This document shows, piece by piece, positions 10,312-13,022 of a stretch of DNA of 32,000 nt. This stretch comes from Candidatus Jordarchaeales archaeon (lineage in GTDB: Archaea > Asgardarchaeota > Jordiarchaeia > Jordiarchaeales > Freyrarchaeaceae). Location: the NCBI GenBank assembly GCA_038858525.1, contig JAWCFL010000002.1, positions 91,350 through 123,349 of the forward strand. Direction: 5' to 3'. Under the pieces are notes generated by a model. That model did not search any database. It worked only from the letters and a program-made list of their open reading frames with translations, and had not been told where the DNA came from. The first letter of the stretch is position 1, and each line of letters starts with the position of its first letter. The translations under genes and the position numbers were made by a program.

Positions 10312-11598
10312 ATGGATGTGCTTGAGAAAGTTTTTTCCAAGATAGGGCTGGAGTTCGACGCGGAAATAGGAGCATATGTTCACGTAAAGACGAACATACC
10401 TCTCACAGTTCATTATGATGGAGAGAGCGAAGAGCTGGTTCTACTTGACCAAACTAAGCTTCCATTTGAAGTTACAGTTTGGAAAACAAAGGACTGGAGA
10501 GAAGCTGGAAACCCAGGAATAAAAGGAATGATAGTTCGAGGAAGCCAGGCTATAGGTTGTGCCGCCGGCTACGCAATGTTACTTGCAGCAAACAGCTTCA
10601 GAAACCTTAAAGAAGAAAAATTCATGGAAAAGCTTAACGAGGCAGCGTTATTCCTGAATTCTACGAGGCCAACAGCTTCTCCTCTAAAATGGGCTGTAGA
10701 ACTTTGCATAAAAGCAGCACAGAACGCTATTCGGAGCGGAGGCGTCGAAGAAGCCGTTGAAGCTATCAGAGAGACTGCAGACTACGTGCTTGCCTCCGAC
10801 TTGATCATGAACTGGTACCTAAGGCAGGAGGGGAAACCTCTCATAGAGGACGGCGACGTAATAATGACTCACTGCAATGGCGGAAGCCTTTCCTCGAGTT
10901 TTGGGGGACACGCCCTAGGAATGATAGAAGAAGCGTACGTTGAGGGAAAAGAACTAATAGTTGTCTCCAAGGAGACCAGACCCAGAAGCCAAGGCTTCAA
11001 GCTTACGACGTGGGAGCTTAACAGGGCAGGTGTGCCGGTGGTGATCATAACAGACAACATGATCTCCTCAGCAATAGAGCGCTTCGGAGTCTCGAAAGTT
11101 ATACTTGGAGTGGACAGGATTGCAAGAGACGGCTCAGTAGCTAACAAAATAGGCTCGGCCGACATAGCGCGCATTGCAACACTATACGGAAACATAGACT
11201 TCTACTATGCTACATCCTACAGCACCATAGACCTGAAAACAAGCGAAGGCAGAAGCATCCCTATAGAGGAAAGAAGCATAGACGAAATAACGTACCCATA
11301 TATCCTTGAAGCAAAAGACAAAAAGGAAAAGGGGATAATTTCGAGTAAAAGCCTAGAAGAATGGCCGCCCCAGAAAGTCATCGTCCAAGGAAAACCCGGG
11401 AGAGGGCAGATAATGATATATAACCCCGCCTTCGACGTCACGCCTCCGAAACTAATAGACTTAATCATAACGGACATAGGGATCTTCGCTCCTCAACAGA
11501 TAAGAACACTAACAGAGGAAAAAATAAATCGGATCGTGAGGGAGCGACTAGAAAAACAAGGGGTGACAATGCCCAAGTACATATATGTGTGGAGCTGA
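10312..11598 (+). CDS. mtnA: S-methyl-5-thioribose-1-phosphate isomerase family protein (MtnA / eIF2B-alpha-like)
   Basis: LLDQTKLP, MIVRG..AIG, TRPT, THCN, ETRP..QG.KLT.WEL, GVDRI..DG.VANKIG, NPAFDVTP. Start moved to ATG 10312 after GGAGG. Confidence 0.82.
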   Translation: MDVLEKVFSKIGLEFDAEIGAYVHVKTNIPLTVHYDGESEELVLLDQTKLPFEVTVWKTKDWREAGNPGIKGMIVRGSQAIGCAAGYAMLLAANSFRNLKEEKFMEKLNEAALFLNSTRPTASPLKWAVELCIKAAQNAIRSGGVEEAVEAIRETADYVLASDLIMNWYLRQEGKPLIEDGDVIMTHCNGGSLSSSFGGHALGMIEEAYVEGKELIVVSKETRPRSQGFKLTTWELNRAGVPVVIITDNMISSAIERFGVSKVILGVDRIARDGSVANKIGSADIARIATLYGNIDFYYATSYSTIDLKTSEGRSIPIEERSIDEITYPYILEAKDKKEKGIISSKSLEEWPPQKVIVQGKPGRGQIMIYNPAFDVTPPKLIDLIITDIGIFAPQQIRTLTEEKINRIVRERLEKQGVTMPKYIYVWS

Positions 11599-11600
11599 GC

Positions 11601-11617
11601 GCAAAAACATTTATTAT
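11601..11617 (+). promoter_or_regulatory. Putative BRE/TATA for tRNA-Ser
   Basis: GCAAAAACATTTATTAT about 31-47 bp upstream of the tRNA 5' end. Confidence 0.5.
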
Positions 11618-11647
11618 TCCTTCTCTGAAATAAGAAGGACTTGGTAA

Positions 11648-11810
11648 GCGGGGGTTGCCTAGTGGCTAGTTCCGGAGGAACCCATAAAAGGCGCTGGCCT
11701 GGAGTTTAAACCGCACCTGAAAGCCAGTGACCCGAAAAGGTGCATGACGCCGCGCGCCATCATGCGCTATCGGACGGGTCGCGTGGGTTCAAATCCCACC
11801 CCCCGCGCCA
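11648..11810 (+). tRNA. tRNA-Ser(GGA) with three BHB introns (11668-11687, 11705-11721, 11738-11775) and encoded CCA
   Basis: Removing the three inserts gives an 88-nt class II cloverleaf: GCGGGGG/CCCCCGC acceptor, GCCT/AGGC D stem, CTGGC-CTGGAGA-GCCAG anticodon arm, GACCC-GAAA-GGGTC variable arm, GTGGG-TTCAAAT-CCCAC T arm, G73, CCA. Confidence 0.88.
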
Positions 11811-11918
11811 AACACAACGATTCCCCCCAAACGTTGTTTTATGTCCTTCCTCCAGGAAATTTAGAGGAAAGAGCCGAGTAAGGCTATGTTTTGTGTGAAA
11901 AAATAGCTTGCTTGTTTT

Positions 11919-12350
11919 TTATATGTCAAGGACGAATACTAAGCGAGTTTTATCTTTTTTAATGTCGATTTCCATTTCGTGATACGTTGCTGCTTTGACG
12001 TCAGTCTTTGACACGTGCTTCTTGTGATTGAACTTTTCACCCTTTGCTGTCGCCGTTAACCTGTAACGTCCATCTTTCTCTTTCTCTATTGCCTTAACTT
12101 TAACCTCGGAGAATACTAGGCCCTCAGCGTCTGTTAGGTAAATGAATTCTTCAAGCCAGTTGTAAAGGAGACTCTCTAGGTCTTCTCCTTCAACAGTTAT
12201 GCTCCTTTCTACTTTAGGTTCGATCCTTGAGGTGTCCGTCATTAATTCGTAGAGTGCTTTAGCTGCCTCTTCGAAGGCTTCTTCGATGGTTTCCCCTTTT
12301 GCTTCTATTTTAGCATCAGCGGTGTGCTCGAGAAACCTAAAGCTGCCCAT
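11919..12350 (-). CDS. Archease (RtcB tRNA-ligase cofactor)
   Basis: FRFLEHTAD, AFEEAA.A, DLESLLYNWLEEFIYL, DVKAATYH, VLDI C-terminus. Start moved to ATG 12350. Confidence 0.95.
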   Translation of the reverse strand: MGSFRFLEHTADAKIEAKGETIEEAFEEAAKALYELMTDTSRIEPKVERSITVEGEDLESLLYNWLEEFIYLTDAEGLVFSEVKVKAIEKEKDGRYRLTATAKGEKFNHKKHVSKTDVKAATYHEMEIDIKKDKTRLVFVLDI

Positions 12351-12533
12351 AGTTAACACCTCACTCCAGTTTTTATCATAAGTGAAAGAAAAGCTTTCCT
12401 GAGTTTTAGAGAAGCATTTCTTAGAGTTTCGAGGAAGCCATGTGAAAGATCCGAGGGTGTTCTCTGTAATACTAAGCTTCAAAATGTTGGGGGTGAAGGA
12501 TGACTCGAGAAAGGTCTGGAGGATGAAGCTTGG

Positions 12534-13022
12534 TTGAAGTACGTTAAGGTTGTTTTTCTGGGGTTGCCCTCGGTTGGCAAGACGAGTATTATAACGCTCT
12601 TGAGCGAGAACAGGGTTGTTAAGAGCTACGACCCGACGATAGGTGTTGACTTTGGTTCTTTGTCGATCGGCGAATGTGAGGTCTGCATGTGGGACTTCGC
12701 AGGGCAGGATAGATTCAGGTTCCTTTGGGACGACTTCATAAAGGGGGCGAAGGTGATCTTCGCTGTGAGCGACTCGACCCCGAAAAACGTTCTGCAGACT
12801 AAGAGGATAATAGATGAAGTTAGGCAGAAAACTGATGCGGTTATCATAGGGATAGCTAACAAGCAGGATCTTCCAGGAGCCATGAAACCCAGTCAGGTGG
12901 AAAGCATACTTGAAGTTCCAACATACGGCATGGTTGCAATAGACCCTAGAAAGAGAGTTAAAATGTACAGCATTTTGAGGCAGGCTCTGGAACAGGTGGT
13001 TTTAACGGTAGCGAGCAACTAA
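12534..13022 (+). CDS. Ras-superfamily small GTPase (Arf/Rab/Roc-like)
   Basis: G1 GLPSVGKT, G2 PTIGVDF, G3 WDFAGQ, G4 NKQD. 162 aa, no CAAX box. Confidence 0.92.
   Translation: MKYVKVVFLGLPSVGKTSIITLLSENRVVKSYDPTIGVDFGSLSIGECEVCMWDFAGQDRFRFLWDDFIKGAKVIFAVSDSTPKNVLQTKRIIDEVRQKTDAVIIGIANKQDLPGAMKPSQVESILEVPTYGMVAIDPRKRVKMYSILRQALEQVVLTVASN

Follow-up and report, generated by a model that had tools for sequence, protein, structure and literature searches.

A tRNA-Ser(GGA) gene of a Jordiarchaeia archaeon probably interrupted by three introns, including one at the variable-arm tip

Direct reading of the window (the whole 32,000-nt stretch of DNA analysed here) revealed a tRNA-Ser(GGA) gene on the plus strand at positions 11648-11810, in which four tRNA-like exons were interrupted by three inserts, located in the D-loop, at the canonical 37/38 site and at the apex of the long variable arm (Table 1). 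The transcript is very probably spliced of all three inserts as introns by a splicing endonuclease together with RtcB. This reading was based on the anatomy of the gene, its conservation among relatives, covariation and the presence of the splicing enzymes in the genome.

Gene structure and spliced product

When the three inserts were removed in silico, the resulting 88-nt product was identified by ARAGORN as tRNA-Ser(gga) with a clean cloverleaf. The acceptor stem contained 7 bp, the D-stem 4 bp, the anticodon stem 5 bp and the variable stem 5 bp with a GAAA loop, and the T-arm was standard. The ARAGORN structure of the spliced 88-mer was that of a class II tRNA-Ser, and the discriminator G was read directly from the sequence. 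In the unspliced window, no tRNA was found by ARAGORN, and none was found by Rfam at the gathering threshold; at a loose E-value, the Rfam tRNA model matched the T-arm of exon 4 alone, with 14.5 bits. An earlier note on this DNA had proposed a triple-intron tRNA-Ser(GGA) at this position and suggested that scanners could miss it. The sequence, the exons, the inserts, all three junctions and the 88-nt length of the spliced product were borne out in silico, and the unspliced gene was indeed overlooked by both ARAGORN and the Rfam tRNA model. Folding of the precursor, a check for which the same note had asked, yielded for the 163 nt a lowest-energy structure of -72 kcal/mol (z = -2.9), which none of 200 shuffled sequences equalled. 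It was a cloverleaf with an insert prolonging each of the D, anticodon and variable arms.

Table 1. Features of the window discussed in the text
Feature	Position	Strand	Description
TATA-box-like element TTTATTAT	11610-11617	+	31-38 nt upstream of the mature 5' end; direct reading
Exon 1	11648-11667	+	Acceptor 5' strand, U8-U9, D-stem 5' strand, D-loop to position 20a
Intron 1, 20 nt	11668-11687	+	D-loop, site 20a/21
Exon 2	11688-11704	+	A21, D-stem 3' strand, G26, anticodon-stem 5' strand, anticodon loop to G37; anticodon GGA
Intron 2, 17 nt	11705-11721	+	Canonical 37/38 site
Exon 3	11722-11737	+	A38, anticodon-stem 3' strand, variable-arm 5' strand and GAAA loop
Intron 3, 38 nt	11738-11775	+	Long variable arm, at its tip; follows the final base of the loop and precedes the variable stem's 3' strand
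Exon 4	11776-11810	+	Variable-arm 3' strand, T-arm, acceptor 3' strand, discriminator G73, encoded CCA
Short hairpin ACAACG...CGTTGT, then T-run TTTTAT	11814-11842	+	Direct reading
Archease gene (RtcB cofactor)	11919-12482	-	PF01951, E = 1e-48, 166 bits
Arf/Ras-family small GTPase	12534-13022	+	PF00025, E = 1e-21; adjoins archease
Long imperfect hairpin	19790-19885		One arm GA-rich, the other CT-rich
Apparent tRNA-Arg(UCU)	23578-23711	+	Inserts in the D-loop, anticodon stem (~29/30) and T-loop (59/60); anticodon by eye
Apparent tRNA-Thr(CGU)	25356-25475	-	Inserts in the D-loop and T-loop (59/60); by eye only

The TTTATTAT element upstream of the gene is probably its archaeal promoter, as judged from its sequence and position, and a similar A/T-rich box was located at equal upstream distance in the orthologs G001, G002, G003 and G004. 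The short hairpin and T-run behind exon 4 may mark the end of the transcript. An uninterrupted tRNA-Ser(GGA) elsewhere in the genome had been named in the earlier note as an observation that would speak against the gene. No second tRNA-Ser(GGA) was found in the 92.7%-complete assembly, either by BLAST of the mature sequence or by a search for a GGA anticodon arm followed by a T-arm. The gene in the window is the sole detectable decoder of UCU and UCC in this assembly. ARAGORN reported only 11 tRNAs in the 2.09-Mb genome, with no Ser tRNA among them, and most tRNA genes of the genome are therefore interrupted.

Orthologs and intron motifs

Orthologs were searched for in 60 related genomes. The remaining three species of the genus had full-length orthologs of 161, 158 and 147 nt, and an ortholog of 129 nt was found in the sister genus G004. 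All four species of the genus carried inserts at the same three sites. Among these members of the genus (n = 4), the exons were 94-100% identical and the introns 51-68%, and exons 1 and 2 were identical in all five orthologs. After splicing in silico, the orthologs (n = 5) were recognised by ARAGORN as 88-nt tRNA-Ser(gga), like the gene in the window. The inserts were then scored as BHB motifs in the strict register, which requires 3-nt bulges spaced by 4 bp, each cut behind its second base.

Intron 1 had a central helix (GTGG/CCAT) with all four pairs formed, bulges CTA and AAA, and an inner stem of 5 bp (GTTCC/GGAAC), and its outer helix was the D-stem with A14 bulged. This is a canonical BHB motif, and the description of the D-loop intron in the earlier note as a textbook BHB was correct apart from the bulged A14. 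All four pairs of the central helix were kept in 5/5 orthologs, in which the intron side read CCAT, CCGC or CCAC and the intron varied in length from 17 to 26 nt. The intron at 37/38 was relaxed, as had been claimed. Its central helix (CTGG/CCTG) formed three of four pairs owing to one U-U mismatch, which was kept in 5/5 orthologs, the inner helix consisted of 1 bp, and the outer helix was the anticodon stem. Intron 2 is not a canonical BHB and belongs to the relaxed hBH class only. Its site was occupied in all orthologs, Freyarchaeum included; position and conservation across the order, rather than the motif, argue that the 37/38 insert is an intron.

The variable-arm motif was found partly as described before. 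The central helix (CCGA/TCGG, four of four pairs), the 5' bulge AAA and the 9-bp stem (GGTGCATGA/TCATGCGCT) were all present, but the stem, which had been taken as outer, was internal to the intron, the 3' bulge given as ACG was effectively 4 nt (ACGG) once the outer GAC/GTC helix formed, and a single unpaired A (11769) between the 9-bp inner stem and the central helix had been omitted. The BHB of intron 3 requires one additional unpaired base at two junctions, and this conformer was calculated at -20.7 kcal/mol, compared with -24.5 kcal/mol for a mature-like stem with an internal loop, a gap of 3.8 kcal/mol at 37 °C. In these modelled structures the motif of intron 3 is near-canonical, not textbook. 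The intron was present in 4/4 species of the genus, with lengths of 29-38 nt. Its central helix formed four of four pairs in the window genome (G000) and in G001 and three of four in a third species; in G003 it formed one of four in the strict register and at best three of four by eye when the register was shifted. No guide-RNA C or D boxes were seen when the 38-nt intron was inspected by eye.

The three junctions CT/AAGGC, GGAG/AGCC and GAAA/GGGTC (the slash marks the joint) agreed in silico with a cut after the second bulge base. In the variable arm, such a cut restored the GACCC-GAAA-GGGTC arm, as the earlier note had stated, with a variable region of 17 nt as in two insert-free relatives. 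The register of the variable-arm cut is ambiguous because the 3' bulge is effectively 4 nt, and a 3' cut after ACG would leave a 4-bp stem with a 5-nt loop. In G001, moreover, the BHB rule placed the 3' cut in the D-loop one base earlier, which resulted in an 89-nt product. That the gene is spliced with at least one junction off by a base or two is nevertheless unlikely, since the original junctions recover the 17-nt variable region of the insert-free relatives, and moving both D-loop cuts by one base within the A run leads to the same product.

Covariation was seen in the paired regions of the proposed structure. In the variable stem of G003, substitutions in exon 3 were matched by substitutions at the paired bases of exon 4 (A-U to G-C and C-G to U-G). 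In the five-sequence alignment, 91.8% of the structure cells were paired, compared with 41-50% when the partners were slid, and double-sided changes occurred at 7 pairs, including both inner intron helices and the variable stem, a result reached by 0 of 500 shuffles. The covariation is supportive rather than formal proof because the related sequences were just five and not independent.

The compensatory changes of the inner helix would also be explained by a structural extension of the tRNA, in which the D-loop and 37/38 inserts are spliced and the 38-nt variable-arm insert is kept or conditionally removed, leaving a giant helical variable arm. Two further observations lean in this direction: the mature-like stem with its internal loop and long helix was favored by 3.8 kcal/mol over the BHB conformer, and the variable-arm motif was degenerate in G003. 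Slow or conditional removal of the insert is conceivable because the precursor prefers the mature-like variable stem to the BHB fold. However, an arm of this size fits poorly with the way SerRS recognises its tRNA, through the variable arm's length and orientation. The central helix also had four of four pairs in G000 and G001, where the AAA and 3' bulges were separated by exactly 4 bp, and the cut by the BHB rule yielded the exact 17-nt region of the two relatives without the insert. In addition, inserts at the same site of Leu tRNAs are listed as introns in published tables (PMC11291895). It is therefore highly improbable that the variable-arm insert is not constitutively removed and that a giant-armed tRNA-Ser might persist or be a maturation checkpoint at SerRS. 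A decaying tRNA pseudogene with insertions, out of use, which the failure of standard scanners at the locus might suggest, is barely credible, since the exons were near-invariant in four species and the sister genus as the inserts diverged, all stems were intact in the spliced product, the gene was the only candidate decoder of UCU and UCC in the assembly, the flanking gene order was conserved on both sides within the genus, and most tRNA genes of the genome were similarly interrupted.

Gain of the variable-arm intron and comparison with known tRNA genes

The D-loop and 37/38 introns were common to the whole order. Neither the sister genus G004 nor Freyarchaeum (G006) had the variable-arm insert; the variable region was 17 nt in both, and the tRNA-Ser(GGA) of Freyarchaeum had an anticodon-stem intron in place of the variable-arm one. 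On this distribution, the variable-arm intron would most simply have been gained on the stem of the genus studied here. When metagenomes were scanned for further orthologs carrying this intron, one contig was found, which was identical to the G003 gene and therefore added no diversity.

The identity of the reference genomes was established from coordinates. G006 is the complete 3.58-Mb Freyarchaeum genome, in which our search match and the published tRNA-Ser(GGA) (1482398-1482542) both ended at 1482542; the match G021:C1:697920 corresponded to the tRNA-Ser(GCU) of Atabeyarchaeia-1 in the published table. Removal of the two listed introns from the Freyarchaeum tRNA-Ser(GGA) (G006:C1:1482398-1482542) left 107 nt. 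A third, unlisted insert of ~19 nt was found in its D-loop at the site of intron 1, and when it was removed as well, an 88-nt tRNA was obtained that ARAGORN accepted. This agrees with the point made about overlooked D-arm inserts in a 2026 preprint, according to which tRNAscan-SE overlooks 30% of inserts, mostly in the D-arm (Goswami et al. 2026, bioRxiv 10.64898/2026.10.13.758758).

Heavy interruption of tRNA genes has been described in this group of archaea. Introns, often non-canonical and multiple, were reported in 92-95% of the tRNA genes of Freyarchaeia and Atabeyarchaeia (Valentin-Alvarado et al. 2024, PMC11291895). For Jordiarchaeia and Atabeyarchaeia, Goswami et al. counted 2.2 intervening sequences in the average gene and five at most, and they mention insertions in class II variable arms. 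The gene in the window, with its three inserts and a host in the same order as Freyarchaeum, fits this class. Like the tRNA genes of Jordiarchaeia and Atabeyarchaeia in general, it carries multiple BHB-type introns, many of such introns being non-canonical, especially in the D-arm, and standard annotators fail on it. Unlike the published Freyarchaeum ortholog, for which two introns are listed, it has a variable-arm intron, which is restricted to its genus.

Variable-arm-tip introns were also found in Leu tRNAs. In Freyarchaeum deiterrae, the coordinates in Supplementary Data 4 of PMC11291895 place introns of 31 nt each at the variable-arm tip of tRNA-Leu(GAG) (GGC-GCAG/intron/GCC) and tRNA-Leu(UAG) (GGC-GTAG/intron/GCC); the coordinates are tabulated in that paper, and the position itself is not discussed there. 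These are class II tRNAs like the one studied here, and their introns likewise lie between the last base of a 4-nt loop and the 3' strand of the variable stem (after GCAG and GTAG, compared with GAAA here), but the isotype is different and the introns have no evident sequence similarity. After splicing in silico and recognition by ARAGORN, the window genome itself was seen to contain a tRNA-Leu(UAG) with a 17-nt variable-arm-tip intron (C1:58834-58966, plus strand; GTAG/.../ACC) and a tRNA-Leu(GAG) with a 19-nt one (C1:~61351-61480, minus strand; GTAG/.../GCC). By eye, no similarity was evident among the three variable-arm introns of this genome, in Ser(GGA), Leu(UAG) and Leu(GAG). Given the Leu introns of Freyarchaeum and of the window genome, an intron at the class II tip is therefore not new in the order. 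As far as the compared sequences indicate, what is specific here is the variable-arm-tip intron in Ser(GGA), limited to one genus. The Leu(CAG) gene on C11 of the window genome may likewise carry an intron at the variable-arm tip.

The earlier note had assigned triple-intron tRNAs mainly to Thermoproteales. Such genes are indeed known there, for example the Pyrobaculum tRNA-Glu(UUC) and tRNA-Pro(UGG) (Sugahara 2008, as cited in PMC4390854 and PMC4090602), but for this Asgard host the statement is outdated, as multi-intron tRNAs have been published for Jordiarchaeia (PMC11291895; bioRxiv 10.64898/2026.10.13.758758). The gene in the window has in common with those of Thermoproteales that as many as three BHB or BHB-like introns occur in one gene, that some sites are non-canonical, 20/21 included, and that splicing would depend on an (alpha-beta)2 endonuclease bearing the crenarchaeal specificity loop; it differs in that its host belongs to a different phylum (Asgard). 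In the older reviews on Thermoproteales that were consulted, 45/46 and variable-loop introns are described only for class I tRNAs, such as the A. pernix tRNA-Lys; the passages on the T. pendens case (Kjems 1989, as cited there) name no isotype. According to one review, no translocatable intron or split gene was known in class II tRNAs.

As a typical case of a phenomenon that has been published before, the gene leaves the known picture unchanged, because the phenomenon, its scale and class II variable-arm introns are already in the literature. It provides a clean, well-conserved example of extreme tRNA gene interruption in Asgard archaea. It also provides a well-polarised intron gain, present in 4/4 species of the genus and absent in the sister genus and in one species of the sister family (Freyarchaeum), which could help with the question of how such introns arrive. 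As a more modest alternative to a persisting giant-armed tRNA, the tip of the class II variable arm may be a recurrent landing site for introns in the order, and the genus-specific Ser(GGA) intron may be a recent, datable gain. In practical terms, the gene serves as a warning that nearly all tRNAs of these genomes escape annotation by ARAGORN and Rfam.

Splicing machinery and proposed maturation

Two EndA paralogues, each with PF01974 and PF02778, were found in the genome, in the regions C3:81835-82089 and C43:5978-6235. The paralogue of 191 aa had as its best match the catalytic subunit of A. pernix (3P1Z_B), to which it aligned end to end (E = 2e-48), and its residues K46 and K48 were located opposite K44 and R46 of the Crenarchaea-specific loop of 3P1Z_B. 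This loop confers a broad substrate range on EndA (Hirata et al., PMC3241643). The paralogue of 198 aa was 32% identical and had an Ala opposite the catalytic His, which fits a structural beta subunit. By sequence comparison, the pair appears to have the features of an (alpha-beta)2 enzyme of broad specificity, including the Lys of the specificity loop. RtcB was also encoded (601 bits).

The gene for archease, the cofactor of RtcB, was convergent with the tRNA gene and located 108 nt downstream of its end; the true start of archease is likely the Met near 12350. The adjacency of the two genes was kept in 4/4 species of the genus and was not seen in G004 or G006. It may be a coincidence, or it may locally tie a cofactor of splicing to a substrate that undergoes much splicing. 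Upstream of the tRNA, an IF-2B-family gene was present in all orthologs, that of the sister genus included, and the gene order on both sides was conserved within the genus. The Arf/Ras-family small GTPase next to archease belongs to a typical Asgard "eukaryotic signature" gene family and agrees with the Asgard affiliation of the host.

In the proposed maturation pathway, the host, an uncultured hot-spring Asgard archaeon of the class Jordiarchaeia and the order of Freyarchaeum, would transcribe the gene as a precursor of ~163 nt in which the D-arm, the anticodon arm and the variable arm are each lengthened by an insert. Every insert would pair with adjoining exon bases to form a BHB or BHB-like motif, and the two-subunit splicing endonuclease of the (alpha-beta)2 type would cut after the second base of every bulge. 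The three motifs are in separate arms and can form simultaneously, and therefore no fixed order of removal would be needed. The four exons would then be joined by RtcB with the help of archease, giving an 85-nt tRNA plus CCA with the GACCC-GAAA-GGGTC variable arm and G73. Cleavage, the exact cut sites and ligation are inferred here. The variable-arm insert would have to be removed before recognition by SerRS. Translation would require the removal of all three introns, because the assembly yielded no other gene that reads UCU and UCC.

RNA data and other features of the window

At least part of the locus was present in 16 of 19 sequencing runs, and only one of these 16 was RNA (a metatranscriptome). 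The metatranscriptome contig that spanned introns (252 nt, 11518-11763) was unspliced, began in the upstream gene and represented a variant in which 6 nt were inserted into intron 1. The remaining metatranscriptome pieces at the locus covered the shared T-arm end only. No exon joints appeared in this library, and it is uninformative on splicing either way.

Apart from the tRNA-Ser(GGA) gene, two stretches of the window resembled interrupted tRNA genes, an apparent tRNA-Arg(UCU) and an apparent tRNA-Thr(CGU), whose inserts are given in Table 1. The long imperfect hairpin with one GA-rich and one CT-rich arm was located at the end of a Glu/Lys-rich coding stretch. Plant microRNA precursor models matched it weakly on both strands, the best with 29 bits, far below threshold, and the hairpin is probably an inverted repeat or a terminator.
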